Below the pieces are notes generated by a model, which saw nothing but the letters and a program-made list of their open reading frames with translations, made no database searches and was not told the origin of the DNA. 64,000 bases of DNA, from NCBI GenBank assembly GCA_003229305.1, contig QIDH01000049.1, positions 7,026-71,025 of the forward strand, written 5' to 3'. Positions 13,753 through 30,464 of the stretch are shown here, in pieces. How positions within the stretch are numbered: the stretch's first letter is position 1; every line of letters starts with the position of its first letter. The position numbers and the translations under genes are program-made. Source of the DNA: Acidimicrobiia bacterium. GTDB lineage: Bacteria > Actinomycetota > Acidimicrobiia > Spongiisociales > Spongiisociaceae.

Positions 13753-13837
13753 AACGACCGTCCTTTCGACTTCGGCAGAATAGGGACGCAGGTACCGGAG
13801 TGACAAAACCCCTATCGCAGGTGCGGTGCCCTCCGGC

Positions 13838-15088
13838 TCAGTTGGCAAGCCTATCTGGAGCTACCTTGACCAGCCGTTCGAGTGCCCTATACGCCCGCTC
13901 TCCGAATGCTTTGTCCTCCGGCTCCAGGACATTCACCATGACCTTGAGCGTCCAAGCCATCAGGCTCTCGGATCGGATACCGGTGCGCGCCAGGGTGCGC
14001 ATGATTGCCGGCCGACCTATCGCCTTCACGAAGACCCTGGCAGTCCTGTAGTACAACCCGAATGTGTCCTCGAGCTCCTGGGGGTAGCGCTGCAGAATGC
14101 CGAGGTCGTCAGCCCCCAAAGCGGCTGAGATGTGTCTGGCCGCGATCCGACCGGTCTCGTATGCGTATGAGATGCCCTCCCCGTTCCAAGGGTTGATCGA
14201 GCCGGCGGCGTCTCCGACCACAACGAAGTTCGAACCTACTCGCGGACCAACTGAGAACGACATCGAGAGCTTCCCGCCCCTTGGCTCCGTCAGCTTCGAA
14301 TGCTCGGACAGCCCCCAATAGCCAGGGGCGGTCTCGGCGTATTTGTTCATCACGTCCGTTGTGTTGATCTCTTTCCAATGCGAAAACGTGGAAAGAATAC
14401 CGACTCCGACATTGACGGTGCCATCACCGAGCGGAAACACCCAACCGTATCCGGGCATCGATGCTCCGGATGCGTCCCGCATGTCGAGCTGACTCTCGAG
14501 AAAATCTGCCTTTGACATCGGACTCGAGTAGTAGCCGCGCGCCGCCAACCCCATCGGGTAGGCCTTGTCTCGGCTGGTACCCAACGCCCTGCCGAAGCGC
14601 GACAGTGAACCGTCCGCCACTACCACTGCTCTCGGACTCAAACGCTGCGTCTCTCCATCTTTCACCAGATCGATCGCAGCCAGACGCCCATCGACCATCA
14701 CTGCTTTGGCCTCGACCTTCTCCCGGACGTCAACACCTTGTTTGCGGGTCAGGGCCGCCACCTGCTGATCGAGCTCAGAACGCCTGATCACGCCACCCCA
14801 GTTCGGGAAAACTGAGTGCTCGGGCCACTGAAGTTCTACCTGCAACTCGTCTCCTGCGTACGACCTGAGCCCACTGACCTTGTGAAAACTCGGGACGTCA
14901 AAATCGAACCCGAGCTTCATCAGCTCGAATATCGCTCTCGGGGTGAGGCCATCGCCGCAGGTCTTTTCCCGCGGGTACTCCTTCTTTTCGGCCAGGACGA
15001 CATCGTGGCCCGCCTTGGCGAGCCAAAACGCGGCGGCCGATCCGGCTGGGCCGCCTCCGACGACGACTACCTCTGGGGTGTTGGTCAT
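13838..15088 (-). CDS. Geranylgeranyl reductase family flavoprotein (MenJ-like prenyl/menaquinone side-chain reductase)
   Basis: N-terminal FAD fold VVVVGGGPAGSAAAFWLAKAGHDVVLAEKK..EKTCGDGLTPRA. Sits upstream of nuoA as in many actinobacteria. Confidence 0.85.
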   Translation of the reverse strand: MTNTPEVVVVGGGPAGSAAAFWLAKAGHDVVLAEKKEYPREKTCGDGLTPRAIFELMKLGFDFDVPSFHKVSGLRSYAGDELQVELQWPEHSVFPNWGGVIRRSELDQQVAALTRKQGVDVREKVEAKAVMVDGRLAAIDLVKDGETQRLSPRAVVVADGSLSRFGRALGTSRDKAYPMGLAARGYYSSPMSKADFLESQLDMRDASGASMPGYGWVFPLGDGTVNVGVGILSTFSHWKEINTTDVMNKYAETAPGYWGLSEHSKLTEPRGGKLSMSFSVGPRVGSNFVVVGDAAGSINPWNGEGISYAYETGRIAARHISAALGADDLGILQRYPQELEDTFGLYYRTARVFVKAIGRPAIMRTLARTGIRSESLMAWTLKVMVNVLEPEDKAFGERAYRALERLVKVAPDRLAN

Positions 15089-15172: not shown

Positions 15173-15832
15173 GTGTCGAACGAAATCCCAAGGGCGACTG
15201 TGGAGCGCCTGCCCCGCTACCTCAAATGCCTCGAACAACTGATTCAGCACAAAAGAACGATCTCGTCGACTGAGCTCGCCCATTTGGCGAATCTGTCACC
15301 CGCCCAGCTGCGCAAGGATCTTTCCCAGCTCGGATCGTACGGAATCAGGGGGGTCGGCTACGACGTGGAACAACTCCAGGGCGAGATCCGCAGGGAGCTA
15401 GGTCTGACGCGAGATTGGCCGGTGATCGTCGTCGGCGTCGGCAACCTGGGGTCAGCTCTCGCTGCGTACGGAGGGTTCGGGAATCGAGGTTTCGAGATCG
15501 CAGGCCTATATGATGTCGACCCTGATCGAATCGGAGACAACATCCAGGGGATCGAGATCAGGTCGCTCGATCGGGTCGGCCGGGACGTTGCCGCCAGGCG
15601 GGTGGCAATAGGAATAATCACGACTCCGGCCGTTGCCGCCCAGTCGACCGCCGACGTCTTGGTGGCAGCGGGGATCTCGTCGATCCTCAACTTCGCCCCC
15701 GCGGTCATCAGCGTGCCATCCCACGTAGAGCTGCGCCAGGTAGACCTCTCGACCGAACTTCAGATCCTGGCGTTCTATCTTCAGTCGCGAAGCGGAGAGT
15801 CCGCGCCAAGGCCGCGCGACGATGAGCCGTAA
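15173..15832 (+). CDS. rex: Redox-sensing transcriptional repressor Rex
   Basis: IPRATVERLPRYLKCLEQL (winged helix) and VVGVGNLGSALAAY (Rossmann). In-frame GTG at 15173 chosen; the track start at 14816 would run antisense through the reductase gene. Confidence 0.9.
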   Translation: MSNEIPRATVERLPRYLKCLEQLIQHKRTISSTELAHLANLSPAQLRKDLSQLGSYGIRGVGYDVEQLQGEIRRELGLTRDWPVIVVGVGNLGSALAAYGGFGNRGFEIAGLYDVDPDRIGDNIQGIEIRSLDRVGRDVAARRVAIGIITTPAVAAQSTADVLVAAGISSILNFAPAVISVPSHVELRQVDLSTELQILAFYLQSRSGESAPRPRDDEP

Positions 15833-16041: not shown

Positions 16042-16401
16042 TCAGGTCTCGGCGTGTTCTTGGTCGGTCTCGTAGCGGTGGAGCGCCACGAGGAACATCG
16101 TGAAGAGAATCGCGGACGCGATTGCGAAGGCGCCTGGCACGATCCTGATCTCGAACGCGTTGAGTCCGTCGATGTTCACCGGACGTGGCCCTCTGGGGGC
16201 ATACATGACAAAGAGGATCGAGTTGATGGTCATCCATCCAAACGTTCCGGCTCCCACGACCAGGATGCCCAACCGCTTGCCGAGGTTCGTATAGGTGAGT
16301 AGATAGATCGTGCCGTAGAAGGTGAGCACCGCTGCGATCGTGATGACGATGCCGGTGAACAGCAGATTGGCCGAAAGAATCGCCCTGAAGAACTCACGCA
16401 T
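16042..16401 (-). CDS. Small integral membrane protein (3 TM), last clear gene of the Rieske/b6 operon
   Basis: 119 aa, hydrophobic (LFTGIVITIAAVLTFYGTIYLL...). Its start overlaps the cytochrome c stop by 1 nt (TAATG). Confidence 0.7.
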   Translation of the reverse strand: MREFFRAILSANLLFTGIVITIAAVLTFYGTIYLLTYTNLGKRLGILVVGAGTFGWMTINSILFVMYAPRGPRPVNIDGLNAFEIRIVPGAFAIASAILFTMFLVALHRYETDQEHAET

Positions 16402-17855
16402 TAGCCCTCCTCGCTTTCAACGCCAATTCCATCGAGCGTCTGACCCCTCAAGTACTGCACGATGAGCTCGATGTCACGCTGAGACAGCACCGTCCCAAAA
16501 CCTGGCATGCGCCCAGAGCCAACTCCGTTGGCTCCGTATCCAGCGCCGTTTTCCGATCCCTTGATGAGGAACTCGATCATATCGGCTGTGACCAAGAACT
16601 GAGTGTTGGCCCTGCCATCCCGCAACGAAGGTCCCAATCCCCCAGCGGCCGGCTGCTGCTGAAAGGCGATGCCGGCCGAATAGCCGGATGTATGACACCT
16701 GGCGCAATATCCGTTGAACAAACCGATGGCCCTACGGGCATCTTCGAGGTTGCCCCCAAACGTGAGCGCGGCCACCACTGGGAAATCAACGGCCCAGCGC
16801 TTGGCAATGGCGGCCTCTTGGAGGGCGGCCAGGCCGGAATCGGCTTGGGCGCTTATCGAATCTGCGCTGGAAACGATTAGATCGAGCTCTGCGGCCCTTG
16901 ACTCAACCTGCGAGACGAGCGTGCGAGCCGCTCTACCGTCCGAGGTACCGATGCTCGACTCTACGTTGGTCGGATCGAGCGTCGGGGCCTGGTCAATGAG
17001 TTCGGCCGCCACCGCCAGGATGCCGATTTCCGTCAGAGCCTGCTCGGCAGAGTCGCTCAGGCCGTCACCGTCTGTGTCGAGGCCCTGTCCCGCGAGCCGC
17101 AGCTCCCTCGCTGCCTCTTCCGCCAGCCCTTCGGCAATCGGAAGCAGGGTCGGTGCAAAATCGACTGAAGCAATCAGCTCTTCTTGGGCAGAAATCTGGT
17201 TTGCGACCGCCTCGTCCGCGCCGTCGAGGCGGGCGAGAGCTCCGCTGACGTTTCCCTCGATATTGATCAGGGCCTCAGTCTGGGAAAGCTGGAATGTTCC
17301 GAGATAGTTCAGCAAATCGTCAACTTGCTGCTCGTTGAGCGGTCCACCGCCCTCCAGGCCCCAGGCCGGCATCGGTGTGCCCGCCCGACCAAAAACAATC
17401 CAGAACTTCGTTTCATCACGCTCGTACCGGAAAAAGACGTCATTCAGCGAGGGGGCCGCCCATGAGTCGACCTTTACCTGGGAGCGGGGCTCGAGGAACG
17501 ACACGCCACCACCGACGCCCCCTGCCCCGTGACATGCGGCGCATCCAAACTCGTCCCAGACTTCAAGGCCCCGCTCAACTGAGGCCTCGTCGAACTCTTC
17601 AACAAAGCCAAGTTGACGGTCGTTCTCGCCGAGGTAGTAGACCGGGAGGGCCAACGCCAGGAACGCGGAGGAGATGACGGCGGCTATCAGCGCTCGATCG
17701 AGCCGGGTGGTCTCCAGCTCGTCGTCAGTTGCAGCGGCGGACAGATTGGCCGGCACCTCGTCGCGACCGCCGCGGCGAGAGCCGGATCCGACCAGGAAGG
17801 CAAACCAGCCAATCGCGCCGAGGGCGACCAGGGTGATTACAAGACTGTTGAGCAT
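16401..17855 (-). CDS. Membrane-anchored dihaem cytochrome c (QcrC-like) with a roughly 170-190-aa insertion between the haem domains
   Basis: CAACH (aa 105-109, with MPAWG) and CARCH (aa 384-388, with RMPGFG). N-terminal TM helix. The helical insert contains DTDGDG (aa 260-265). Confidence 0.88.
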   Translation of the reverse strand: MLNSLVITLVALGAIGWFAFLVGSGSRRGGRDEVPANLSAAATDDELETTRLDRALIAAVISSAFLALALPVYYLGENDRQLGFVEEFDEASVERGLEVWDEFGCAACHGAGGVGGGVSFLEPRSQVKVDSWAAPSLNDVFFRYERDETKFWIVFGRAGTPMPAWGLEGGGPLNEQQVDDLLNYLGTFQLSQTEALINIEGNVSGALARLDGADEAVANQISAQEELIASVDFAPTLLPIAEGLAEEAARELRLAGQGLDTDGDGLSDSAEQALTEIGILAVAAELIDQAPTLDPTNVESSIGTSDGRAARTLVSQVESRAAELDLIVSSADSISAQADSGLAALQEAAIAKRWAVDFPVVAALTFGGNLEDARRAIGLFNGYCARCHTSGYSAGIAFQQQPAAGGLGPSLRDGRANTQFLVTADMIEFLIKGSENGAGYGANGVGSGRMPGFGTVLSQRDIELIVQYLRGQTLDGIGVESEEG

Positions 17856-17861
17856 CGCCGC

Positions 17862-18749
17862 CTAAACCTCCGGGGCCGCGGAGAGGCTGATACAGGACGG
17901 CCCCAGGGGATATTCGACTGTAAATACAGGCGCCCGAGGAGTCTGGATGATGTTGGCCGTCTTGACGATCATCCTGTCGCCCTGCAACTCGACTTCGAAG
18001 CGGTCGAGGTTGCGAGGCGCAGGGCCGGCTTGATATTCGCCGACCGAATTGTATTTCGATCCGTGACACGGGCACTCAAAACCCTGTGAGGACGCGCACC
18101 ACGGCACCCGACATCCGAGATGAACACACCGCTGCCACAGGGCGGTCAGCTCGCCAACCACCAACGCCTCGCTGAACTGCGAACCGCTGATGTCGGCGTT
18201 GGCGAACGGGACAATGTAGGCGCGGGCCTCGGGCACGAAGGCGGGGATGATGGATCCATCTGGCTGAATTATCTGATTCCGGAGATCGGCGATCGCCCCA
18301 ACGTCGATTGCGGAGCCGAACCCGCCGGACAGGCGGGGCCAAAGGAAGCCGAGGTAGGCCACGCCGTTCAGAGCCAGGAAGGCCCCGAAGGTTGCGCCTA
18401 GTGCCCTGGTAAGGAAGGCTCGTCGATTTACCCCCGCCTCCTCAGGCGACAGCTCTTCGACCTTCAAGACCTCTACGGCATGCACTGCCGCCGGTTCGAC
18501 GACTTCGGGGTCCGGTGCGGATTCGGCGACCACCCCTTCGATCGGTAACTCTGCCGCGCCAGCTCCCGCCATGACCGATACTGGCTCATTCAATTCGGAT
18601 CGATCGGCCTTGGCTGTAGCCCGATCGATGTCTTGCCTCCAATCGGAACTGGGATCGGAACCGCGCTTGAACGCGATAACGAAGGCTCCGAGGACGGCGA
18701 AGACGCCGACCGCCGCGACCCCGACGATGAGAATCTGTGACGTCGTCAT
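17862..18749 (-). CDS. Rieske [2Fe-2S] iron-sulfur subunit (QcrA-like)
   Basis: CVHLGCRVPWC ... CPCHGSKY. Internal twin-arginine-like NRRAFLTRALG before TM2. Start trimmed to ATG 18749 (MTTSQILIV), an ATGA overlap with the upstream stop. Confidence 0.9.
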   Translation of the reverse strand: MTTSQILIVGVAAVGVFAVLGAFVIAFKRGSDPSSDWRQDIDRATAKADRSELNEPVSVMAGAGAAELPIEGVVAESAPDPEVVEPAAVHAVEVLKVEELSPEEAGVNRRAFLTRALGATFGAFLALNGVAYLGFLWPRLSGGFGSAIDVGAIADLRNQIIQPDGSIIPAFVPEARAYIVPFANADISGSQFSEALVVGELTALWQRCVHLGCRVPWCASSQGFECPCHGSKYNSVGEYQAGPAPRNLDRFEVELQGDRMIVKTANIIQTPRAPVFTVEYPLGPSCISLSAAPEV

Positions 18750-19696
18750 CCGAAATCCACCCAATCCTTGAGGTCGTCGAAAAAGATCCCGTCTGCCCAC
18801 GGGTAGGTGAAGTTGAATCCCGGACCGCGGAACAGGGTTCCCAGCATGGTCAGGGTGGCCGATCCGGCAAGGAAGAAGGTGAACAACAAGATCGCAAACT
18901 TACGATCAGACGGCTTCGTTGAGGGGTTGCGATCTATATAGGGAATGGCCATGAATCCGACCAGGCCGGAAATGCCAGGAACTATGACACCGGCAATCTG
19001 GGGGTCGTAGTAGGACAGCAACTCTTGGAGACCGAGAAAGTACCAAGGCGCTTTGGAAGGGTTGGGGGTCGCGTTGAAGTTGGCCAACTCGAGCAAGGGT
19101 GCCTGGAGGATAACGGAGAGGATTATCAGGAAACCTGTCATGACGAGCAGAGCGGTGAACTCGGCAATCATGAGATGGGGCCAGGTATTGACTTTGTCGG
19201 CTGGTGACGACTTGACCTGCTGAATCGCCCTTGCCTTGACGACGGTGAGGAGCCGCTGGGTTCTGACCCCTTCAGGTATTGCCTCCGGCTGGGCTACGGG
19301 GCGTGGAGAAACCGAAGCGGCCAAAGGAGCATCTCCGCCGCTGACAGGGCTCGGAGGGCTCGCGACTTCTGGCGACGCCTCGGCCGGAGCTGCCACCGGA
19401 GCCAGGGATCCTTGCGGAGCCTCCGGTTCCGGGGTTTCCACAGGCCCGACGACCTCTGTTTCGACGACTTTGGTCTCGACAGCTGGAGTTTGCTCGGCCG
19501 TGGCGTCTGGGTCGCCAGGAGCAGGGGCTTCGACAACCGCCGCCGTTTCAGGCGGCGTTGGCGCCTCGGCAGGGGCAGAGGGCGCCGGTGGCGCTTCGCC
19601 CCTCATCTCGGCGAGCACCTGTTCGACCGGCACGCCGAGCGCCTTGGCTCTGGCCTCGGCTGAGCGCTGGAGAAGATGTTCTGGGATGTCAACCAT
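18746..19696 (-). CDS. Cytochrome b C-terminal half (b6f subunit IV-like) with a roughly 150-aa N-terminal extension
   Basis: C-terminal PNPSKAPWYFLGLQELL (PEWY-box variant) plus 3 TM helices. N-terminus MVDIPEHLLQRSAEARAKALGVPVEQVLAEM followed by a Pro/Ala/Glu-rich linker. AAGGAG about 8 nt before the ATG. Confidence 0.85.
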   Translation of the reverse strand: MVDIPEHLLQRSAEARAKALGVPVEQVLAEMRGEAPPAPSAPAEAPTPPETAAVVEAPAPGDPDATAEQTPAVETKVVETEVVGPVETPEPEAPQGSLAPVAAPAEASPEVASPPSPVSGGDAPLAASVSPRPVAQPEAIPEGVRTQRLLTVVKARAIQQVKSSPADKVNTWPHLMIAEFTALLVMTGFLIILSVILQAPLLELANFNATPNPSKAPWYFLGLQELLSYYDPQIAGVIVPGISGLVGFMAIPYIDRNPSTKPSDRKFAILLFTFFLAGSATLTMLGTLFRGPGFNFTYPWADGIFFDDLKDWVDFG

Positions 19697-19710: not shown

Positions 19711-20487
19711 CTACAGCGGACCCGATATTCCGCCGTCTTTACGGACCCGCCAGAAATGCACGGCCATGAAGATGACGATGACGAATGGTAAGAAAAGTAC
19801 GTGAAGCACGTAGAAACGCAGCAGAGTGTTGCCGGTGACTTCGATTCCGCCGAGTAAGGCGAACTTCACCCCCGGACCGAAGATTGGCGTGAAACCTCCC
19901 ATGTTCGTCCCGACGGTCACAGCCCACAATGCCAGTTGGTCCCATGGGAGCAGGTAGCCGGTGAAGGAAAGCAGCAACGTGAGGAGCAACAACACCACGC
20001 CAACCACCCAGTTAAATTCACGTGGCGGCTTGTACGCGCCGTGATAGAACACCCGAGACATATGGAGGAACACGGTCAGCACCATCAGGTGTGCGCCCCA
20101 GCGGTGCATGTTGCGCACCAGTGAACCAAACGCAACCGAGGTGGAGAGGGCTTCGACATCGAGGTAAGCCGCCTCTGCCGTTGGCCGGTAGTAGAACATC
20201 AGGAATATTCCGGTGATGGTGAGCAGAATGAAAAGGAAGAAACTGAGCCCACCAAGGCAAAGGGTGTAGGAAAGACGCACCCCGTGACGCTTCACCTTGA
20301 CTGGATGCAGGTGGTACAAGACGCTGTTCATGATCACGTACGACCGGTTCCTGGGGCTGTCCGAATACCCCTTCTTGAGAGGAGAGCCAGGTCGGAACAT
20401 CGATTCCCAAACTGAGCCGCCTCGCACGCGGGTAGCCATCTCCCCGATCCGCTCACCCAATCGCAACCCGCCGTTGCCGTCTGCCAC
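19711..20487 (-). CDS. Cytochrome b6-type subunit (N-terminal, 4-helix, bis-haem half of cytochrome b)
   Basis: [19 protein letters not shown] and [22 protein letters not shown] supply the four haem-b histidines. GTG start preceded by GGAGGA. Confidence 0.9.
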
Positions 20488-20513: not shown

Positions 20514-20969
20514 TTACCAGCGCACGCCGTAGGCGTAGCCGTTCTTGAAATCTCGTTGTCCCGTGTCGATCTCCCACGGCACCTTGTCACTCAAACTCGA
20601 CTGCATCGCCACGTCGGACACGGAGCCGGTGAACTTGCCGAGTGTGATGACGTTGGTCGGGCATCTGTCGATGCACAATTGGCACCTGGTGCACTCCGCT
20701 TCGTCGACGACAAAAAACCCTCCGTTGTCTTCGCTGGCACCAGGGTGATCCACGTTGATGGCCTCGTCGATTGCGTCAAGTGAAAGGAAGTGGATGCACT
20801 TCCACGGGCAAATATCGACGCAGCCCTCGCAGATGATGCATTCTGCCTGGTTGATATGGAGAAACTGTTTCGGTTTGACAGTGCTCTGCACATACGAGGG
20901 GTCAACCAATGCCAACTGGTAGTCATCCCGCATCGGAGGCGTTTCAAACCAGACCTCGCTCTTGGCCAT
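20514..20969 (-). CDS. 2x[4Fe-4S] ferredoxin-domain protein encoded within the Rieske/b6 operon
   Basis: CIICEGCVDICP and CTRCQLCIDRCP. 151 aa with no TM helix. 1-nt overlap with the upstream gene. Confidence 0.85.
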   Translation of the reverse strand: MAKSEVWFETPPMRDDYQLALVDPSYVQSTVKPKQFLHINQAECIICEGCVDICPWKCIHFLSLDAIDEAINVDHPGASEDNGGFFVVDEAECTRCQLCIDRCPTNVITLGKFTGSVSDVAMQSSLSDKVPWEIDTGQRDFKNGYAYGVRW

Positions 20970-21886
20970 CAGTCGACCGCCTTGACGAGTGGACGTCCGT
21001 ATGGCGAAAGCGGCGTTTCGGCAGGTGGCTCATCCTCGAGCGGTTTGCCCCAGTCTTGGATCTTCCAGGAAAAGACCATGATCGTGGTCAGAAATCCGAG
21101 GTTGAGGTTGACCGAAATGAAGTCTTTGATCACGCCCCAGCTGATGCTGATGTCGTTGTTCAACATCAACCATTTCCAACCAGTAGCGATCCACCTTGGG
21201 TGGTTCTCACGAGGAAACGCGATGCTCTGCTCCGTCCAAGCCAGTGGACCCTGAGCAAGGTTCAGCCACTCGGACGGGACCGTACCCAACCAAATCACGA
21301 GCTCGAAGAACGCGAGGAAAGCGGCGAAGGCGGCCAATGCCCAGGTCATCTTCCTGCCGAGAATGAGGGCAATGGCCAAACCGCCCACAATCATCTGGGA
21401 CCCGATCAGGGCGACGATGTGACCAACCGTAAACCAGGGGATGCACCACTCCGCTCCTGTCACACCAATGATGGGATTGGTCGAAACGAGGCTGCTGTTG
21501 TTCCCCACCAGACAGCCCCGAGGAACCCATCCGAAATAGTCGACGTCGACTATGACGTCGACAGATATCTCGTCGGATCCGGCTTCGGGTACTGGAGTGA
21601 CTTTGAGGACACGCATCTCGCCATCGCCGACGTCAACCAGATCGCCTGCGACGGACCCAACGACGTCTTCGGTGTTGAGGTTTGCTCTCTCGGTGGCAGG
21701 AAAATTCGAATAGTGGGCGAACCAGATACCGACGACGAGGACCAAGAGGCCACCGAGGACTAGGCGTACGCCGAGCCCCGAACGCTGAGAAGCGTCGAGC
21801 CGGCGGAGCTTGGTCTGCAGCATCGGTTGGGTATTCCCCTCATGTCGCTTGGGTCGCAGTGAAAACGACCCGCCCTTGTTCATCAT
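20969..21886 (-). CDS. Trp-rich polytopic membrane protein of unknown function, first gene of the Rieske/b6 operon
   Basis: 305-aa ORF: N-terminal TM helix, a roughly 100-aa soluble segment, then 4-5 TM helices. No family recognised. The start may be internal (MLQTKLRR at 21823). Confidence 0.65.
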   Translation of the reverse strand: MMNKGGSFSLRPKRHEGNTQPMLQTKLRRLDASQRSGLGVRLVLGGLLVLVVGIWFAHYSNFPATERANLNTEDVVGSVAGDLVDVGDGEMRVLKVTPVPEAGSDEISVDVIVDVDYFGWVPRGCLVGNNSSLVSTNPIIGVTGAEWCIPWFTVGHIVALIGSQMIVGGLAIALILGRKMTWALAAFAAFLAFFELVIWLGTVPSEWLNLAQGPLAWTEQSIAFPRENHPRWIATGWKWLMLNNDISISWGVIKDFISVNLNLGFLTTIMVFSWKIQDWGKPLEDEPPAETPLSPYGRPLVKAVD

Positions 21887-22359
21887 GTCCGGCCGGTGTG
21901 TCAGGCGCCGGACGCATTCGCGAGCTGCGCAGGTGGATCACGACCAAGAGCAGTTTTAGCAGAAACGAGGTGCAGTTCTAAACCCATCGCGGCAATTGCG
22001 ACGATCTCGGGGGCAGGCCCTCGAGATGATTCGGGATGGACGCAGCGACAGACCCGCACTCCTTCGATGGCGCGCCAAAGGTGCGGCCTCTTCGGCCCTC
22101 TGACCACACTGTCCTCGACCGGTCAATTGCCCGCGGTCGAACAGAAGGCAGAGCCAGGACTGGATTCAAGGTCAGACCAACGCCGCTTTGACGACATCAA
22201 CCCTGAAGGCGAAACTGCACCAGGCCACGCCGGGTCGCGAGATGGGTCCTGGCCTCGTGAGGACACATCTTCGGATCCGATCGACGAATCCGGTAGCCTC
22301 GGAGCCGCCGGTCGGTTGGGCCGAGTATTCAGAACCATCAGGAAAGAGGAGCCAACGCC

Positions 22360-23784
22360 TTGGCGGCAGCCAACAGCGGACGCAATGTATTGACCGGAGT
22401 CCTTTCGACAAACGCGGATTCAGCGGCCAGAAGGGCCATGCTGGCCTCGTTGGTTTTCGCCGTGATCGGAGCGGCAGCAACGGTTCTCATGCTCATCAAG
22501 GTGTCCGTCCCTGGACTCTTCGACACTGCCTCGATCGCCGGGTACGGGCGCATGCGGGCGATCGCGCTCAATTCTTTTGTCTACGGGTTCGGCGGCCTGG
22601 CGTCGACCGGTCTCGCCTACTACATGACCCCTCGCTTGGCCGGAGCTGCCCTGGCAAGACAACGGCTGGCCAATCTCGGGGCAGCCGGCCACACGTTCGT
22701 CGTCACGATCGGGCTGGCTTCGATTGCGTTGGGAATCACAGATCCCCTCGAGCTCGCCGAGTTCCCGCTGCTAGTCGATTTGGGTCTCTTCTCATCGATG
22801 GTGATCCCGGCTCTCATCGTGACTGCCACGGTCAGGGCCCGCACAGAGCGAACGATCTATGTGTCGCTCTGGTACGTACTGGCCGGCGTGTGGTGGCTGC
22901 CGGCGTTGTATTTTGTCGGAAACGTTCCCGGCACAACCGGACTCGGAACACAACTACAGAGCTCATTCATGGTTGGCGGTCTGATCGGTGCGTGGCTGCC
23001 CATGGTTGGCATCGGGGCCGCGTACTACGTAATCCCTCGCGCCACCGATCGTGCTCTGTTCTCCCGCCCGCTAGCCCAGGCGGGGTTTTGGAGTCTCGCA
23101 GGAACCGGCCTCTTCGCGTCTGTCACACGGTACGGGAGTGGCGCGGCACCCGACTGGTTGGAGACGACCGGAACCGTGTTTTCGCTTGGGCTGATCGTCG
23201 CGGCCGTTGCCACACTTGCCAACCTCGCTGGCACTGCCAACGGCGCGTATGGAGAAATCCGGGAATCGACCCCACTCCGCATGATTGGAGGCGGACTGGT
23301 CGTATACGTGGCGATCGCCGCCCTTCTCTCGGTACAGGGCTTCCGGTCCATCGATGCGGTCGTCGGCCTCACAAGCTGGTACGAAGGTTTGATTCTGGCA
23401 ACGGTGCTGGCCGCTGCCCCTCTGCTGTTGATCGGCGCGATGGCCTACGCCCTTCCCCAAATTGCAGGGCGACGCCTCGTCGACGGCCTGGCCAAACGCG
23501 GCATCAGCGCAACGCTCTGGGGTGGGTCCGTCACCGGCCTACTACTCGTGATCTCTGGGCTCGTGACCGGGCTCGGATGGAACACAGGAGCAGTTCCGAA
23601 TTCTGGCGAAGAGTACGTGCGCACGACCGGGCTGATCGACACCTACCAACTGCTGGCGATCCTCAGCGCCCTCGTGGCAGCCGCCGGCATTGCCATGTTG
23701 ACCCTGGTGATCCTCCGCACATACACGTCAGGCGAAGCGATCGCCTCAGAGGTCCTCGTCTGGGTAGGTGAAGACGATGAGTGA
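22360..23784 (+). CDS. Haem-copper oxidase subunit I (CcoN)-like membrane protein lacking all metal-ligand histidines
   Basis: 474 aa, about 12 TM helices. TTG start 8 nt after GGAAAGAGGAG. CcoN-like blocks [33 protein letters not shown]...FWSL and APDWLE. The whole protein has only one His (GAAGHTF). Confidence 0.8.
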   Translation: [474 protein letters not shown]

Positions 23785-24580
23785 GCTCCTCGCCACAGCC
23801 GCAACCGCAATGGGCACCCCCCAAGATCTGGTCGAACGATCAGCAAGGGCAAGGGCGGCAGCCCAAGGAACCACGTATGAAGGTGTCATTTCTGCCTGGG
23901 CGGGTGGCCAATCGTCGGCTGCGGCGGCCGATCCAAGCCAGGCCCCTGCCGCCGATCCCCAGCCAGAACCGGACCCGAAACCTGAGTCGAATCCAGAACC
24001 AGTCGCCGAGCCAGTCACCCAATCCGAACCGCCGCTTTCTGCACAGGCTCAGGTGACCGCCGTCGCGGTCATTGATCTACCGACAGGTGCACCACTTCTG
24101 GAGGGAAAACACGAGAGCTTCGCCGGGCTGTTGACAGGCATCCTCGCCTTGTTGGCCGCCGCGATCCTGTTGGTCGTGGTAATACCGGCCAACAGCCAGG
24201 GCGACGATCGGCACATCGTCGGAGACGCCAGCCTCAGCGCGCTGGAGGACACGGGTCGGGACGTCTACCTCCAGCAAGGATGCCAGTACTGCCACACACA
24301 GAATGTGCGCCCTGTCGTGGCGGACGTTGGCCTTGGGGCCATAACCGAGACGGGAGCCCGTTCGTTGGCCGATCCTGCCACATTTGGCTTCCAACGCATC
24401 GGCCCTGACCTGGCCCGCGTAGCCGGCCGATTGCCTGAGGACCTAGACGCCGCCGAATATGTTCGTGAGTTCCTTACACATCCGACCGAGGTCGTGGAAG
24501 GTTCAGCACAGCCGCCGTATGCGCACCTGTCGGACGACGACATGGCCGCCCTGGTCGCATATGTTCTGGCGTTGAGATGA
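23777..24580 (+). CDS. CcoO (cbb3 subunit II)-like monohaem cytochrome c with N-terminal cytoplasmic module
   Basis: GRDVYLQQGCQYCHTQNVRP, FQRIGPDLARVAGR and HPTEVVEGSAQPPYAHL align with CcoO. One TM helix. N-terminus MSELLATAATAMGTPQDLVERSARARAAAQG followed by a Pro/Ala linker. Confidence 0.85.
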   Translation: MSELLATAATAMGTPQDLVERSARARAAAQGTTYEGVISAWAGGQSSAAAADPSQAPAADPQPEPDPKPESNPEPVAEPVTQSEPPLSAQAQVTAVAVIDLPTGAPLLEGKHESFAGLLTGILALLAAAILLVVVIPANSQGDDRHIVGDASLSALEDTGRDVYLQQGCQYCHTQNVRPVVADVGLGAITETGARSLADPATFGFQRIGPDLARVAGRLPEDLDAAEYVREFLTHPTEVVEGSAQPPYAHLSDDDMAALVAYVLALR

Positions 24581-24590
24581 CGGAGTGACG

Positions 24591-25562
24591 ATGACTGAAC
24601 AACTCTCAGCGGCAGCGGCCGCTATGGGCACTCCTGAAGAACTGGTCGAACGGGCAGCAAGGGCCAGAGCAAACGCCAAGGGCAACAGCTACGAGGAAGT
24701 CATCGCCGCTTGGGCCGGCGAAGCCCCAACCCCAACTGCCGCAGTCGAAGACACTCCATCTGCTCCAGAGCCTGCGCCAGCAGAAGAGGTCGAGACCCCG
24801 ATCGATACTTCGAGTGGGGAGTCTGACCCCGTGACTCAAGCACTCGCCACGTCCCCGGCCGTCAGTGCAGTGACGGCTCCTTCCATCCCCGAGACGGTTT
24901 CGGTCCGCGAGGCGGCCAGGTACGCAGAGGTCACGACAGTGTCGACTGTCGGCATCAAGGAAAGAACTAGAACAAAGACGCCCGGCTGGCTCACCGGACT
25001 CTTCGTGATGCTTCCGGTTGCGGCCATCGTCTATTTCATTTCGTTTCCGGGGGGCCCGAACTGCGGTGTCGGCGGCCAGCTTTCGGTTGATCGCCAGACC
25101 GGATCAGCCGTCAACTGCGACGGGAGCGAGTATCAGGCAGGCGGGGCAATCGGCGGTGTAGACGCCAGGGCGGTGGTGGCCAGCGGCGGTCTGGTCTACT
25201 CGCAGAGCTGCGCCTCGTGTCACGGTGCAAACGGCGGTGGGGGCACCGGACCTCAGCTGGCCGGAGGAGCCGTAACGGCCACCTTCGCCGGATGTGGTGA
25301 CCACCTTGAGTGGGTCAATCTCGGCTCCAGAGGTTTCCAGAACGCAGGCCGCAGCACGTACGGAGATTCGGACAAACCGATCAGTGGTGTCATGCCAGGC
25401 TTCGCTGGCACCCTTTCCCCCGCTGACCTATCGGCCGTCGTCTTCTTCGAACGAGTCAACTTCGGTGGACAAGACGCAGAAGAGGCCCTCGTCGACTGCG
25501 GTTTTGTGACCGAGGATGGCGAAGGCGCTCCGGACGGTGAAGACGTCGAGGCGATGGGCTGA
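24591..25562 (+). CDS. Membrane-anchored monohaem class I cytochrome c with the same N-terminal module
   Basis: CASCHGANGGG and VMPGFAG. TM helix WLTGLFVMLPVAAIVYFISF. N-terminus MTEQLSAAAAAMGTPEELVERAARARANAKG. GGAG 7 nt before ATG 24591 (the track start at 24585 is a GTG). Confidence 0.88.
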   Translation: MTEQLSAAAAAMGTPEELVERAARARANAKGNSYEEVIAAWAGEAPTPTAAVEDTPSAPEPAPAEEVETPIDTSSGESDPVTQALATSPAVSAVTAPSIPETVSVREAARYAEVTTVSTVGIKERTRTKTPGWLTGLFVMLPVAAIVYFISFPGGPNCGVGGQLSVDRQTGSAVNCDGSEYQAGGAIGGVDARAVVASGGLVYSQSCASCHGANGGGGTGPQLAGGAVTATFAGCGDHLEWVNLGSRGFQNAGRSTYGDSDKPISGVMPGFAGTLSPADLSAVVFFERVNFGGQDAEEALVDCGFVTEDGEGAPDGEDVEAMG

Positions 25563-26118: not shown

Positions 26119-26955
26119 CTAGGCCACCGGAATCGATCGGCGAGATCGCCCGGTTCCGAACACAACTGGCAGACCCTCGGCGACCCCAAGGGCTTCGTCC
26201 GCCCTACCTCCCCTCACCGCCAAGGCGATCAAACCAGATGAATCGACGTGGACCAGTGGGTCGCCTTCGCCGACCTCGCCGTAGGCGAATACCCACGGAA
26301 TCGAATGGACCAAAGATCCGATGCGAACTTCGACCATTTGCCCAGGGACCGCGCCAATCGACTTCAAGTCCTCTGGGGAAACGTTGGTCTGGGCATTCCC
26401 GAAACGGTCCACCCACCAAACCTGAGCGGTCACCGACGTTTCCTCCACCTCACAGAGTGGAAGCAAGAGGGGCGTCAGAGAGTCAGGATCAACCGCAGGC
26501 CCGAGGTCGGCCAATTCGGCCTCCCCTGCGGCCAATACCGCCGCCGCTGGAGCAAAAAGATCACGACCGTCGAAAGTCGCCCCGTGCGTCGGAAGCATGA
26601 CATCTGGGTTCTCGATCGATACCACGCTACTGGCTCCTCCGATGAGGGCTACAGCAGGAGACAGGAGCCCGTTGTCAGGGCCAACAAAGTGTCCCCACGG
26701 GGTTTGTGCGGCTATCGCCCGACGATCGGTTCCTACGCCAGGGTCGACGACAGCCACGACCACGCCATTGGGTAGATACTGCACAGACCTCATCAGGGCC
26801 AGGGCACCCGCCCTGACATTCCCGCGTTCCACATTGTGGGCAATATCGATGACGCGGCTATCTGGCGCGATCGTCGCAAGGACACCGTGAATCACCCCAA
26901 CAAACTCATCGTCCAACCCGAAATCGGTAAGCACGGAAATAGGCGCAGTCGGCAT
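26119..26955 (-). CDS. SAM hydroxide adenosyltransferase family protein (DUF62, chlorinase/fluorinase-like)
   Basis: N-terminus MPTAPISVLTDFGLDDEFVGVIHGV is the family signature. ORF 26119..27009 trimmed to ATG 26955. Confidence 0.8.
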   Translation of the reverse strand: MPTAPISVLTDFGLDDEFVGVIHGVLATIAPDSRVIDIAHNVERGNVRAGALALMRSVQYLPNGVVVAVVDPGVGTDRRAIAAQTPWGHFVGPDNGLLSPAVALIGGASSVVSIENPDVMLPTHGATFDGRDLFAPAAAVLAAGEAELADLGPAVDPDSLTPLLLPLCEVEETSVTAQVWWVDRFGNAQTNVSPEDLKSIGAVPGQMVEVRIGSLVHSIPWVFAYGEVGEGDPLVHVDSSGLIALAVRGGRADEALGVAEGLPVVFGTGRSRRSIPVA

Positions 26956-27027
26956 CGACTCAGGATAGGTCCCGGTCTTGGCCAGATCATCGCCTGACGA
27001 TCTGGTCACTACCAGTACGATGCTCGG

Positions 27028-27912
27028 ATGACTGATATCTATGAGCAGATCATCGATCGCCTCGTCGCAGAGGGCGGAGTCGTGATGTTGGTCGGCGCCC
27101 CAGACACCGGAAAGTCGACGCTCGCCAAACTGATCATGACAGCCGGTCTTGAGAAGGGTCTGGCCGTCTCATATGTCGACGCAGATATCGCCCAGACGAC
27201 GGTTGGGCCACCGACTTGCATCGGCCTACGGCGCCTGTCGACCGTGGCAGATCTCGATGACCTTGCCAGCAGCGACGATCTCCGCTTCGTCGGCTCAATT
27301 GATCCCGAGCGCCTCCGTCTCCAACAGGTGATCGGTACTGCTTCGCTGGTAGAGGCGGCCAGAAACGACTCGGCCCTGATCGTCATAGACACCACAGGCT
27401 CGGTTTCGGGTGTCGTCGGGCAAACCCTCAAATACCACAAGGTCGAGCTCTGCCGTCCAGACTCTGTGGTGGCGTTGCAACGAGGGGCCGAGATGGAGCC
27501 AATCGTCGGGCTACTTCGGCGATTCTTCTCCGTCCAGGTAGACACCGTTCCGGTCCATCCAGGAGTGGTTGCCAGTTCCCCTGGCGAACGGGCTAGCGCC
27601 AGAGCAGAACAGTTCGCCAATGCTCTGAGCGGGGAGCAGCAGAAATGGCGAGTCAAGCCGACAGTGTTCGCCCCGACCCTTCCAACCGGTCTCGACCTCG
27701 CACGCTTGGACGGAATGCTGGTCGGAGTTCACGACCGAGGAGGCCGCTGCCTCGGCTTAGGGGTTCTCGAGTACGACGCTGACGCTCTGAGAGTCGTGAC
27801 GGCGGTTGGAGAAGGCATGGCCGGCCTGCGGCTCGGCTCGTTGAGACTCGACCAGGTCACCCACCAGACGTCAGGTGTGAACCTGAGAGAGGTCATGTTC
27901 GGGCTGGAATGA
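27028..27912 (+). CDS. Clp1/Grc3-type P-loop protein (putative polynucleotide 5'-hydroxyl kinase)
   Basis: VMLVGAPDTGKSTLAKLIMTAGLEKGLAVSYVDADIAQTTVGPPTCIGL plus LIVIDTTGSVSG resembles the Clp1 P-loop domain layout. Confidence 0.65.
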   Translation: MTDIYEQIIDRLVAEGGVVMLVGAPDTGKSTLAKLIMTAGLEKGLAVSYVDADIAQTTVGPPTCIGLRRLSTVADLDDLASSDDLRFVGSIDPERLRLQQVIGTASLVEAARNDSALIVIDTTGSVSGVVGQTLKYHKVELCRPDSVVALQRGAEMEPIVGLLRRFFSVQVDTVPVHPGVVASSPGERASARAEQFANALSGEQQKWRVKPTVFAPTLPTGLDLARLDGMLVGVHDRGGRCLGLGVLEYDADALRVVTAVGEGMAGLRLGSLRLDQVTHQTSGVNLREVMFGLE

Positions 27913-28816: not shown

Positions 28817-29251
28817 CTACCCATCCTGTGCACTGAACCCGAGGCCAAGGAGAGGGCGAAAAGCTACATCGATCAGCTCGGTGATCTCGGCAAAAACCGA
28901 TTGCAGAGTGTCAGGATCGATCCAATCCACTGCCAGCCTCGACCTCAGATAGATCTCCCCATCCTGATCGGTCGAAAAATGGACGAAGCGCGTCCGATCG
29001 TTTCTGACAAGAAGTTGACGGTGGACGTCGGCGATATTCTGCCTCGGCGCTGGGAGGAAATACGCCTCAAAAGACACCGTCCTATCCCCGATGTTGATCC
29101 AAACGGTTGTCGAGTCACGGCTCGCTTGGACGATCCGGACCGCCAACCTTTCTTCCACCCACTCGCAAGACTCTGCCGGGAATTGCGGATCCCCCACCCA
29201 GCCTTCGACAACGGCAGCTATCCGCTCCGACAGATGTGAGCGCTCAACCAC
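28817..29251 (-). CDS. YbjN-like domain protein (conserved partner downstream of mshA)
   Basis: ORF 28817..29335 trimmed to GTG 29251 (GAAGGA 7 nt upstream), overlapping the mshA stop by 8 nt. Position downstream of mshA matches mycobacterial synteny. Confidence 0.6.
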   Translation of the reverse strand: MVERSHLSERIAAVVEGWVGDPQFPAESCEWVEERLAVRIVQASRDSTTVWINIGDRTVSFEAYFLPAPRQNIADVHRQLLVRNDRTRFVHFSTDQDGEIYLRSRLAVDWIDPDTLQSVFAEITELIDVAFRPLLGLGFSAQDG

Positions 29252-30464
29252 CGATAATTCCTTCGTAGAGTTCGGAGAGACGGTTTGCGGTCCTCTCCCA
29301 GGAAAAACGTCTGGAGTGCTCAACCGCCGTGGCACTCATCCTGGCCGCGAGAGCATCATCGCCTAGGATCTCCAACGCAGCCCCTGCGTAATCGACCGGA
29401 TCCCATCCGTCGATCAGGATGCCGGACTTGCCGTCGGCCACCACCTCGGCGAGACCACCGACCCTGGCAGAAACCACCGGCGTCCCTGACGCCTGCGCCT
29501 CGGCGGCAACCAGCCCGAAGGACTCAGAACGAGAAGGCACCAAGACCACGTTGGCCGCCCGGTAAAAGGTCGGCATCTGGGCGTGAGGCTGGGCCGGCCA
29601 GAAGCGCACATTGCCACCTAGGCCAAGCTCCTCCACATGGGCTTGGACCTTCTCCAGCTCCGCCGAGCCAAGCGGTCCGCTGGCCCCGCCTACCAACACC
29701 AGCTTGGCATCTCGTCTTGTCTGATGGATGATGTCGAACGCGTTGACGACCGTGTCTACACCCTTCAGCGGCTGAATCCGTCCTGCGAACAGCACGACAG
29801 GGTCGTCCTCGGCGATCCCGAGCGCCCGCTTGGCTTCACGCCGATCGCCTGGCGCGAACAGATCGTGATCGACCCCAGGAGGGTTGACACACATTTTGGC
29901 GGGGTGGGCCCCATATCGCACCGTCAATTCATGCGACTCGTCTTCAGTCGACGCTATCAAGCAATCCGACTCGGCGATAACCTCGTGCTCGGCTGCGATC
30001 CTGAGCAGCGAAGCAGGAGAATCGTCACTCCTCCGGCTCGCATCCTTGACTCGACCGAGAGTGTGGAACGAATTGGCCAGCGGCAGCCCCAACCGCTGTT
30101 TGAGTAGAAGGCCCGCCCATCCCGACAGCCAGTAGTGGCTGTGAATGAGGTCGAACGGTCCTTTGGCTCGGTCCCAGGCAAGCACACCGTCGGCGAAGTT
30201 GCCGACATAGGCAGGCAGCATCGACACCGGAATGTGGAAGGGCGGGCCGGCATCGAGATGTACGACCGTGTAGCCCGGCTCAACCACCACCTCGTCTGGT
30301 TGGTTTGCCTCGGTCCTTTTGGTGAAAACCACGGCCTCGAGACCGCGCCTCGCCATGGTTTTGGCCAATTCGTCGATGTAGACATTCATGCCACCCGCGT
30401 CTCCTACGCCAGGGGTCTCCAGCGGACAGGTATGCATCGACAGGTACGCTATGCGTTTGATCAC
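29244..30464 (-). CDS. mshA: D-inositol-3-phosphate glycosyltransferase (mycothiol biosynthesis)
   Basis: RIAYLSMHTCPLETPGVGDAGGMNVYIDELAKTMARRG is the MshA N-terminal signature. GT4 C-terminal domain (VPSRSESFGLVAAEAQASGTPVV). Confidence 0.88.
   Translation of the reverse strand: MIKRIAYLSMHTCPLETPGVGDAGGMNVYIDELAKTMARRGLEAVVFTKRTEANQPDEVVVEPGYTVVHLDAGPPFHIPVSMLPAYVGNFADGVLAWDRAKGPFDLIHSHYWLSGWAGLLLKQRLGLPLANSFHTLGRVKDASRRSDDSPASLLRIAAEHEVIAESDCLIASTEDESHELTVRYGAHPAKMCVNPPGVDHDLFAPGDRREAKRALGIAEDDPVVLFAGRIQPLKGVDTVVNAFDIIHQTRRDAKLVLVGGASGPLGSAELEKVQAHVEELGLGGNVRFWPAQPHAQMPTFYRAANVVLVPSRSESFGLVAAEAQASGTPVVSARVGGLAEVVADGKSGILIDGWDPVDYAGAALEILGDDALAARMSATAVEHSRRFSWERTANRLSELYEGIIGG

Follow-up and report, generated by a model that had tools for sequence, protein, structure and literature searches.

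The 64,000-nucleotide stretch of Acidimicrobiia DNA analysed here (the window) encodes a member of the haem-copper oxidase (HCO) superfamily that has lost every ligand of its haem and copper centres. On sequence comparison, the nearest relative of this protein is CcoN of the cbb3 oxidases, and its gene has the hallmarks of a pseudoenzyme, in that the catalytic residues are lost and the gene is intact, conserved and under purifying selection. The gene opens a three-gene module that it shares with two c-type cytochromes, and the module is transcribed divergently from an operon for a Rieske/b6-type complex (Table 1).

Table 1. Features of the ligand-less module and of the divergent Rieske/b6 operon in the window.
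Feature	Position	Strand	Description
119-aa membrane protein	16042..16401	-	Last gene of the operon; conserved in synteny, with a 118-aa counterpart in L002/L003
Dihaem cytochrome c of the b6c complex	16401..17855	-	PF13442/PF00034; CAACH, CARCH
Rieske [2Fe-2S] protein	17862..18800	-	PF00355, NF045928; twin-arginine motif; CxH...CxxH box
Subunit IV (PetD-like)	18746..19696	-	PF00032; N-terminal module as in two cytochromes c
Cytochrome b6 (split type)	19711..20487	-	PF00033 E=4e-47; NF040969 303 bits
2x[4Fe-4S] ferredoxin-like subunit	20514..20969	-	Fer4 families; two CxxCxxCxxxCP motifs; conserved in synteny
Membrane protein	20969..21886	-	First gene of the Rieske/b6 operon; conserved 2-TM C-terminal core; invariant S-x-Y-G-R-P tail
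Divergent intergenic region	21887..22359	.	473 bp; presumed promoters of both operons
Ligand-less CcoN-like protein	22360..23784	+	474 aa; TTG start; 12 TM helices; HCO fold; 1 His, 0 Cys
CcoO/FixO-like monohaem cytochrome c	23777..24580	+	N-terminal cytoplasmic module; Pro/Ala-rich linker; one TM helix; CQYCH; distal Met column Gln
Membrane-anchored monohaem cytochrome c, CcoP-like	24585..25562	+	CASCH; PF13442/PF00034; weak FixP_N match; one membrane anchor

Ligand columns were read from a HMMER alignment and from an independent MAFFT L-INS-i alignment, with P. stutzeri CcoN providing the reference numbering. In the CcoN-like protein, the axial ligands of the low-spin haem b (H60 and H347) are replaced by A69 and L346, the proximal ligand of the high-spin haem b3 (H345) by L344, the CuB ligands (H207, H257 and H258) by G206 or a gap, T256 and R257, and the cross-linked tyrosine (Y251) by G250. 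A previous reading of the same DNA, made from the letters alone (the sequence-only reading), had given the replacements as A, Y, G or S; it was right that none of them is a histidine, but the residues at the six ligand columns are in fact A, G, T, R, L and L. Its count of a single histidine in the whole protein, within GAAGHTF, is exact (H111), and the profile alignment that it had proposed as a check upholds membership of the HCO family and places no histidine at any ligand column. The histidines of haems b and b3, and the three histidines and the glutamate of FeB, on which the NorB subunit of cNOR depends, are likewise not supplied by these His-free columns. Across the ligand-less family the same columns are variable, so that no replacement ligand is conserved. 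We infer from these alignments that the CcoN-like protein binds no haem b, haem b3 or CuB, in which case the reduction of O2 or NO would be impossible.

The loss of ligands is set in a protein that is otherwise recognizable as CcoN over its whole length. A Shine-Dalgarno sequence, AAGAGGAG, lies 8 nt 5' of the TTG start, and the translated product matches almost the whole profile of the Pfam COX1 family (PF00115; E=5e-30; positions 3-434 of 436). Its best PDB match in a phmmer search is P. stutzeri CcoN (3mk7_A, E=1.2e-24, query residues 22-407), in which the four CcoN sequence blocks singled out by the sequence-only reading align as quoted. The TIGR00780 ccoN model also recognizes it, with 120.6 bits, below the equivalog cut-off of 583, and the original assignment to CcoN is borne out. 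The AlphaFold2 model (pTM 0.83) adopts the CcoN fold, as the same reading had proposed to verify, superposing on cbb3 CcoN with a Foldseek TM-score of 0.82 and an rmsd of 3.4 Å, and NOR structures appear only as distant fold matches (TM-score 0.68-0.73). Structural Gly, Pro, Trp and Arg positions common to canonical CcoN are kept throughout the ligand-less family. Such closeness to holo-CcoN, which reaches a TMt of 0.90 in the model of a natural CcoN-CcoO fusion, would be compatible with a vacated pocket that binds a haem through Met, Tyr or Lys, a quinone or a carotenoid, and supports a new catalytic or electron-transfer activity. The 10 Met residues of the window protein, and the frequent presence of a MenJ-like geranylgeranyl-reductase gene and a nuo operon next to the module, speak for such a cofactor. 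We regard it as unlikely, since across the ligand-less family conservation is lacking both at the six ligand columns and at every other Met, Cys, Lys or Tyr of the TM core except Y222/Y223, a pair that is also found in canonical CcoN without serving there as ligands, and the window protein has no Cys at all.

The ligand-less state is the property of a large family under selection. A whole-database profile search yielded 122 full-length representatives of 50%-identity clusters, and 82 of them retain none of the six ligands. Ligand-less members occur in independent assemblies as intact ORFs with conserved synteny, at identities from 88% down to 31%. Against the 88%-identical ortholog, the CcoN-like gene shows a dN/dS of 0.093, and the corresponding values for the CcoO-like and third cytochrome c genes are 0.11 and 0.15. 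The ortholog survey and the selection test that had been suggested as checks thus both point to a conserved loss of ligands under purifying selection. The view that the gene is a pseudogene in decay, or a normal ccoN distorted by a sequencing error or frameshift, has only the missing catalytic residues in its favour, and is refuted by the intact ORFs, by the dN/dS and by the 82 ligand-less cluster representatives; it is further contradicted by the translational coupling of the gene to that of the CcoO-like protein, whose ATG at 23777 overlaps the CcoN-like stop codon (23782-84). Together with the predicted fold, ligand loss and dN/dS support the central proposal of the sequence-only reading, a cofactor-less pseudo-oxidase of conserved fold that has kept its c-type cytochrome partners. 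Purifying selection over the entire 12-TM protein, and its constant association with energy-coupling complexes, could also be taken as signs of an ion-moving module, that is, a proton or sodium channel or pump driven conformationally by the Rieske/b6c complex or by Alternative Complex III (ACIII), in the manner of the antiporter-like subunits of complex I. This is an improbable reading: the columns that in cbb3 hold the proton path and the Ca site (T215, S240/H243, Y317 and E122) are variable in the ligand-less set, and no charged residue is conserved family-wide inside the predicted TM helices. Conserved polar residues lie instead at helix ends and in loops, with E134, D140, P264, W266, R329 and T338 falling in predicted periplasmic loops, and this distribution argues against the ion-conducting role that had been raised as an option for the protein. 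The periplasmic face of cbb3 CcoN is the one that carries CcoO (3MK7).

Every ligand-less CcoN-like protein is paired with, or fused to, a CcoO-type monohaem cytochrome c or a cupredoxin. In the window, the CcoO-like protein exceeds the gathering cut-off of PF02433 (FixO; E=1.7e-20, 73.9 bits against 29.6), falls short of the TIGR00781 equivalog cut-off (72 against 200.65) and aligns to 6xkw_o and 3mk7_B, with an N-terminal TM anchor and its CQYCH motif at residue 169. The homology to CcoO and the preserved CxxCH had both been recognized from the sequence, as had the altered distal-Met motif. CxxCH is kept throughout the family, and the distal Met is retained in the fused and ACIII-linked members, most of the family carrying S-x-M-P-x-Y. 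In the family alignment, the motif reads SAQPPY in the window and L001, and SLHPTY in L003, so that in the subclade of the window, where Gln or, in L003, His takes the place of Met, the haem may have unusual ligation and potential. The third gene, whose likely start is the ATG at 24591, encodes the singly anchored monohaem cytochrome c that had been predicted. Some family members are natural CcoN-CcoO fusions, one of which is modelled confidently as a single unit (pLDDT 85, pTM 0.90), and in two representatives a cupredoxin is fused to the CcoN-like protein in place of CcoO. Furthermore, a class-specific N-terminal module of about 40 aa is common to the CcoO-like protein, the third cytochrome c (E=7e-26) and subunit IV of the b6 complex (E=2e-6), and is present in four tandem copies in subunit IV of L004 and L005.

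The association with a Rieske/b6 complex, which had been noted in the window from the divergent orientation of the two operons, holds beyond it: in the Acidimicrobiia the module is divergent from a ferredoxin/b6/subunit IV/Rieske/cytochrome c operon, an arrangement that recurs in seven independent loci. Throughout the family, the genes around the module are respiratory ones. The intergenic region of the window yielded no identifiable element, with no Rfam family and no Rex-operator match. The first gene of the operon encodes a product without Pfam or NCBIfam matches, is conserved in all Rieske/b6-linked loci and has a dN/dS of 0.065; the product of the last gene has no family match either. The ferredoxin-like subunit lacks a signal peptide and is therefore predicted to be cytoplasmic, and cytochrome b6 has a single Cys, within YTLCLGG, which we take to be the haem ci/cn position by reference to b6f. 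In the Verrucomicrobiota, the module lies directly 3' of the ACIII genes, a placement seen in three loci. COX2 follows the module directly in L011, L010 and L008; in L011 and L010 it is succeeded by a bona fide A-family COX1, after which L011 also has CtaA and CtaB. This presence beside ACIII and aa3-oxidase genes indicates that the partner of the family is more broadly a quinol:cytochrome c module, probably joined by a real oxidase.

The retention of cytochrome c partners beside complex III genes leads us to consider it on balance probable that the CcoN-like protein is a redox-dead membrane scaffold for c-type haems that relay electrons from a quinol-oxidising complex to a real oxidase. In this scaffold model, a descendant of a cbb3-type catalytic subunit would have preserved both the fold of 12 helices and the periplasmic surface on which CcoO sits, and would serve as a large anchor in the membrane to which partners dock. 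The parts left active would be the c-type haems of the CcoO-like and CcoP-like proteins, replaced in some relatives by a cupredoxin. One-electron carriers would thereby be held at the outer face of the membrane beside the quinol-oxidising complex (Rieske/b6c here, ACIII in the Verrucomicrobiota), from which electrons would pass sideways through the c-haems to an aa3-type terminal oxidase or another periplasmic acceptor, the module standing in for soluble cytochrome c, probably inside a supercomplex. The physical association of the module with these complexes, the direction in which electrons flow and the acceptor that they reach are all inferred. Several observations count against the scaffold model: no aa3 genes are found in the neighbourhoods of the window and L002-L006, the L012 module has no adjacent Rieske/b6 or ACIII operon, the b6c complex already has a dihaem cytochrome c of its own and might not need two further c-haems, the CcoO-like haem in the subclade of the window may be unusually ligated, and a dN/dS of 0.09 is tight for a membrane protein of 474 aa that is a mere anchor. 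A role as an assembly or maturation factor, such as an oxidase-derived template or chaperone for c-type cytochromes or the aa3 oxidase, would fit the loci in which the gene lies 3' of and in the same orientation as thioredoxin-ResB-CcsA, the system II cytochrome c biogenesis genes (L006/L007, L010 and L013), and L011, where it forms one string with CtaA and CtaB. It is nevertheless very unlikely, because no biogenesis genes adjoin the module in the window, L002 or L003, and because the protein is in every case paired with or fused to a cupredoxin or a haem-binding CcoO domain, which suggests a partner in fixed stoichiometry and not a factor that acts transiently. As a tentative extension of the scaffold model, the dead CcoN might physically bridge the quinol-oxidising complex (Rieske/b6c in the Acidimicrobiia, ACIII in the Verrucomicrobiota) and the aa3 oxidase, holding the c-haems or cupredoxin that wire them as the core of a new kind of supercomplex, with ligands lost on more than one occasion.

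Dead enzymes are known as respiratory subunits from the core 1/2 proteins of mitochondrial bc1, which descend from MPP peptidases, and from the gamma-carbonic-anhydrase-like subunits of plant complex I. In both, as in the CcoN-like protein, an enzyme fold has remained under selection in the respiratory chain after loss of its catalytic residues, but those are peripheral soluble domains, whereas the CcoN-like protein is a homolog of an integral-membrane redox subunit with a putative role in a complex. Actinobacteria have an obligate bcc-aa3 supercomplex (7QHM, 8OVC) in which the dihaem QcrC is a built-in cytochrome c. The lineage is the same Gram-positive actinobacterial one, and membrane-bound c-haems there take over from soluble cytochrome c in linking complex III to aa3; unlike that system, complex III of the window has a split b6/subunit IV, a haem-ci Cys and a ferredoxin-like subunit, and the extra c-haems would sit on a dead oxidase instead of on QcrC. 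With the cbb3 CcoNOP oxidases (P. stutzeri 3MK7, R. capsulatus 6XKW, P. aeruginosa 8SMR), the module shares the operon order of N, O and a further cytochrome c, the 12-TM fold (TM-score 0.82-0.90) and a monohaem subunit of CcoO type held by one TM anchor. It departs from them in the absence of ligands for haem b, haem b3 and CuB and of the cross-linked Tyr, in the lack of conservation of the Ca-site Glu and proton-path residues across the family, in the failure of the window proteins to reach the TIGR00780 and TIGR00781 equivalog cut-offs, in its monohaem (rather than dihaem) third subunit and in the Gln or His at the CcoO distal Met of the window's clade. Supercomplexes in which cbb3 docks onto bc1 are known (6xkw, 8smr). 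In ACIII-caa3/aa3 systems (Rhodothermus marinus and Flavobacterium johnsoniae), ACIII genes are followed by oxidase gene clusters and a membrane-bound cytochrome c donates directly to the oxidase (PMC5928083); in L009, L011 and L008, by contrast, a ligand-less CcoN/CcoO/cytochrome c module stands between the act and cox genes, an arrangement for which no description was found in the accessible literature on ACIII supercomplexes.

Within the HCO superfamily, eNOR, sNOR, gNOR, nNOR, NOD and a putative N2O reductase likewise no longer carry the active-site Tyr, and O2 is not reduced by them (PMC11214002). These divergent families retain both haems and a metal site, whereas the CcoN-like protein has lost all six ligands. 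Active-site histidines were considered fully conserved in all HCO families but one, gNOR being the first found to replace even one of them (Murali et al., 2024; PMC11214002). This picture of near-complete conservation is altered by a large family, under selection, that has no active-site histidine, and that offers a clear example of how an integral-membrane redox enzyme is exapted as a non-catalytic part. The sequence-only reading knew of no characterised example, and the literature searched likewise yielded no prior description of such a family, its named database members all being labelled 'cbb3-type cytochrome c oxidase subunit I'. Since metagenome studies routinely take ccoN as the marker of high-affinity respiration at low oxygen, that label may wrongly credit the Acidimicrobiia, which are abundant in seawater, sediments and sludge, and some Verrucomicrobiota with microaerobic capacity. 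The module also points to an undescribed link between complexes III and IV in a major actinobacterial class, including a b6-type complex with a ferredoxin-like subunit. If the bridging supercomplex were to prove true, the haem-copper oxidase superfamily would have in the CcoN-like protein its first member without any metal centre, and 'cbb3 oxidase' calls would be wrong in at least two phyla.

The CcoN-like ORF, whose TTG start lies 8 nt downstream of the Shine-Dalgarno sequence AAGAGGAG, encodes a 474-aa protein that matches Pfam COX1 (PF00115) end-to-end (E=5e-30, profile positions 3-434 of 436) and has TIGR00780 (ccoN) as its top NCBIfam model, scoring 120.6 bits where the equivalog cut-off is 583. 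These are the two profile comparisons proposed in the sequence-only reading, and its block-by-block match to CcoN is borne out by alignment to 3mk7_A (E=1.2e-24, query residues 22-407), one of the cbb3 CcoN chains that rank first in a PDB-wide sequence search. Ligand columns were read both from this alignment and from a second, independent alignment (MAFFT L-INS-i) with canonical CcoN as anchor, and in both a histidine occupies none (0/6) of the haem and CuB columns, as had been claimed; the replacements are A, G, T, R, L and L, slightly different from the A, Y, G or S first reported. The single histidine noted earlier is H111, and there is no cysteine. The ligand columns were also the ground for rejecting a nitric oxide reductase (NOR) identity. 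Homology and operon form make the CcoN-like protein a derivative of cbb3 (C-family) oxidases; none of the catalytic criteria that can be read from its sequence places it within that family.

Coordinates of the features discussed (window positions unless another locus is named; ligand columns numbered as in P. stutzeri CcoN, 3mk7_A)
Feature	Position	Strand	Remark
nuo (complex I) operon and flavoprotein	1441-15088	-	
Geranylgeranyl-reductase-family flavoprotein	13838-15088	-	
Rex-like redox regulator	~15180-15832	+	
Thrombospondin type-3 repeat, dihaem cytochrome c	17040-17080		residues ~260-271
N-terminal module, b6 subunit IV	19580-19696	-	equivalents in L001-L005
Split cytochrome b6	19711-20487	-	sole Cys in YTLCLGG
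2x[4Fe-4S] ferredoxin-like protein	20514-20969	-	no signal peptide; directly 5' of cytochrome b6
First b6c-operon gene, membrane protein	20969-21886	-	no family match
CcoN-like ORF	22360-23784	+	
Ligand column H60	A69		CcoN-like residue
Ligand column H207	G206/gap		CcoN-like residue
Ligand column H257	T256		CcoN-like residue
Ligand column H258	R257		CcoN-like residue
Ligand column H345	L344		CcoN-like residue
Ligand column H347	L346		CcoN-like residue
Cross-linked Tyr column Y251	G250		CcoN-like residue
N-terminal module, CcoO-like	23777-23910	+	equivalents in L001-L005
Distal-Met site, CcoO-like	24480-24520		residues ~235-250
N-terminal module, third cytochrome c	24591-24725	+	equivalents in L001-L005
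SAM hydroxide adenosyltransferase	26119-27009	-	syntenic with ligand-less gene set in L002-L004
CLP1_P P-loop protein	27028-27912	+	syntenic with ligand-less gene set in L002-L004
GT4 glycosyltransferase (MshA-like)	29244-30464	-	
WS/DGAT wax-ester synthase	49469-50998	+	
Ligand-less CcoN, ACIII-linked	L009 9001-10629; L011 9001-10485; L008 9001-10473		Verrucomicrobiota MAGs
Ligand-less CcoN-cupredoxin fusion P0037	L010 5020-7104		

The closest relative of the CcoN-like protein (88 % identity) is encoded on an uncultured Acidimicrobiia MAG contig (locus L001), and Nei-Gojobori dN/dS between the two loci is 0.093 for the CcoN-like gene, 0.11 for the CcoO-like gene and 0.15 for the third cytochrome c, with cytochrome b6 at 0.015 for comparison. 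A locus search with the single protein returned one genome only, that of L001, and a word-index homolog search returned 8-9 relatives, down to 31 % identity, with the ligands absent in all. The extent of the family is visible because a profile of these relatives was run with HMMER exhaustively against 1.84 billion cluster representatives, yielding 1942 matches at E<=1e-3 and 272 at E<=1e-30. Among the best 150 matches, 122 are full-length, 82 of them with no ligand histidine, 21 with all six and 19 partial, a ligand-less share (82/122) that is biased upward since the search started from a profile of ligand-less sequences. The orthologs and the purifying dN/dS show conserved ligand loss and no decaying pseudogene, the check set out in the sequence-only reading; on the same two grounds a pseudogene or frameshift artefact of ccoN was rejected, and we give that explanation practically no credence. 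On this sequence evidence, the CcoN-like gene is a real, selected member of a large family.

Partial-loss forms retain one to four of the six histidines (cluster representatives P0048, P0061, P0066, P0101, P0124, P0141, P0143, P0145 and P0152). A separate set (P0099, P0125, P0153, P0157) carries Met in the H347 column (HHHHHM); the low-spin haem of these forms would then have His/Met ligation. In a neighbour-joining tree without support values, the canonical six-His P0100 and P0127 adjoin the ligand-less group linked to Alternative Complex III (ACIII), a placement that hints at independent ligand loss in that group.

The six ligand columns vary across the ligand-less set: in one of them Ala leads with 66 %, and in each of the others the most frequent residue stays below 35 %. 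What is conserved are Gly, Pro, Trp and Arg positions that canonical CcoN also has, so nothing points to other residues having taken over as ligands. With no conserved ligand, a new cofactor in the emptied pocket is unlikely. The Ca-site column E122 and the proton-path columns T215 and Y317, conserved in canonical CcoN, are likewise variable, and conformationally driven ion translocation is to be doubted to the same degree, given that channel residues are not conserved. The fold itself is predicted to persist. An AlphaFold2 model from an 8-sequence alignment has 12 long TM helices (pLDDT 74, pTM 0.83), and in a Foldseek search of the PDB it retrieves cbb3 CcoN chains first (TM-score 0.82, 22 % identity), with NOR and A/B-family subunits far behind. 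A natural ligand-less CcoN-CcoO fusion (P0038), modelled as one unit, reaches pLDDT 85 and pTM 0.90, and its N part can be superposed on 3mk7 (TMt 0.90, rmsd 2.5 A). Model and family alignment together place the conserved polar residues of the CcoN-like protein in predicted periplasmic loops; in cbb3, the periplasmic face carries CcoO.

The CcoO-like ATG at 23777 overlaps the CcoN-like TGA. Both partner assignments made earlier held, that of a CcoO homolog keeping CxxCH with its distal Met lost (PF02433, E=1.7e-20; haem motif CQYCH; Gln at the Met column) and that of a membrane-anchored monohaem cytochrome c as third gene (CASCH, single anchor). CxxCH is kept by the CcoO-like protein in all 13 loci compared. 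Replacement of the distal Met is confined to the window's subclade (Gln in the window and L001, His in L003, an ambiguous residue in L002), where the haem may have unusual ligation or potential, and S-x-M-P-x-Y is retained in fused, ACIII-linked and short-FixO members. In P0037 and P0109, a C-terminal cupredoxin (plastocyanin/azurin-like) on the ligand-less CcoN replaces CcoO.

Divergent from the CcoN-like gene, the b6c operon encodes in order a membrane protein, a ferredoxin, cytochrome b6, subunit IV, a Rieske protein, a dihaem cytochrome c and a 119-aa membrane protein. In the first of these proteins (98-305 aa in the window, L001-L004, L006 and L010), the 2-TM core is conserved and the C-terminal tail, S-x-Y-G-R-P-[LM], is invariant. 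The cysteine of the window cytochrome b6 is at what we take to be the haem ci/cn position, as in b6f. From its gene content, the operon seems to encode a b6c complex that includes a cytoplasmic Fe-S subunit, an arrangement found in 7/7 Rieske-linked loci. Between its haem domains, the 484-aa dihaem cytochrome c carries a bacterial thrombospondin type-3 repeat (Ca-binding, DTDGDGLSD). The nuo genes, the flavoprotein, which may be a MenJ-like menaquinone saturase, and the Rex-like regulator flank the b6c operon in the window, and these genes reappear as neighbours in L003, L004, L006, L012 and L013. Scanning the window for Rex operators yielded one match (1.26 expected), which lies outside the intergenic region, an Rfam scan found two tRNAs only, and no canonical terminal oxidase was found within the 64 kb.

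The 13 loci fall into overlapping groups (L008, L010 and L011 are each in two). Seven independent loci are Rieske/b6-linked (window, L001, L002, L003, L004/L005, L006/L007 and L010), and their divergent pairing with a ferredoxin/b6/subunit IV/Rieske/cytochrome c operon persists where identity has fallen to 31-43 % and also in the CcoN-CcoO fusion forms; nuo, Rex or thioredoxin-ResB-CcsA genes often adjoin them. In the three ACIII-linked loci (L009, L011, L008), ligand-less CcoN, FixO and cytochrome c lie directly 3' of ActB-F or ActE-F. Furthermore, aa3 genes lie 3' of the ligand-less gene set in three loci: COX2, A-family COX1, CtaA and CtaB in L011, where COX1 is bona fide (1m56_A, E=2.5e-143, every ligand motif present); COX2 in L008; and, after the cupredoxin fusion, caa3-type COX2 and COX1 in L010. 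A further group (L012, L013) has a short FixO and adjoins flavoprotein and nuo genes. The ResB/CcsA and CtaA/B neighbours would suit an assembly factor, a role that the covalent fusions make, in our estimate, somewhat less probable even than a new cofactor or ion translocation. Named database members come from the Acidimicrobiia and Verrucomicrobiota, all of them annotated as cbb3-type cytochrome c oxidase subunit I.

The two operons also have a ~40-aa N-terminal module in common, found on the CcoO-like protein, the third cytochrome c and b6 subunit IV (consensus G-x-P-E-x-L-V-x-R-S-A-E-A-R-A-x-A-x-G-x-S-x-E-E-V-L-A-x-W-x-G). A Pro/Ala-rich linker and then a TM helix come after it, which predicts a cytoplasmic location for the module. 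All three subunits carry it in the window, L001, L002 and L003, and subunit IV of L004/L005 has four tandem copies. No Pfam family was found for it, and a profile search of 5.8 billion proteins, which matched mostly short contig-end fragments, placed it apparently in the Acidimicrobiia only, including Ca. Actinomarina, and revealed no further carriers, such as aa3 subunits. As judged from sequence, the module is a tie between proteins of both operons and a common partner or assembly.

Being apparently devoid of haem b, haem b3 and CuB, the CcoN-like protein should, by the established mechanism of haem-copper oxidases (HCOs), be unable to take CcoO electrons into the membrane or to reduce O2 or NO. 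The redox-active parts left would be the c-haems of the CcoO-like protein and third cytochrome and, in two fusions, the cupredoxin. The dead subunit would then serve as a docking platform that keeps one-electron carriers beside the quinol-oxidising complex, from which electrons would pass to a true oxidase, the whole replacing soluble cytochrome c, probably inside a supercomplex. We favour this docking role, with slightly better than even confidence, because of the neighbourhood evidence, the remaining c-haems and cupredoxin, and the periplasmic position of the conserved polar residues. Two points tell against it, namely that the b6c complex already owns a dihaem cytochrome c and that Gln or His replaces the CcoO Met in the window's clade. 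Dead-enzyme subunits exist in respiratory complexes, as in the bc1 core proteins, and the actinobacterial bcc-aa3 supercomplex has a built-in cytochrome c; by analogy, these would be the two nearest functional parallels.

In their list of divergent HCO families, Murali et al. (2024; PMC11214002) describe gNOR as the first in which one active-site His has been replaced, whereas the CcoN-like family lacks all six ligands. Our literature search found no description of such a family; a possible earlier mention is the 'unknown group' that, by a caption in PMC5492636, Muntyan et al. (2015) had in their COX1 tree. In metagenome studies the ccoN gene serves as the marker of high-affinity respiration. 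Ligand-less homologs score as COX1 in Pfam, and both JGI and NCBI give them the name ccoN. Calls of high-affinity respiration based on ccoN in the Acidimicrobiia and some Verrucomicrobiota therefore need their ligand columns checked.
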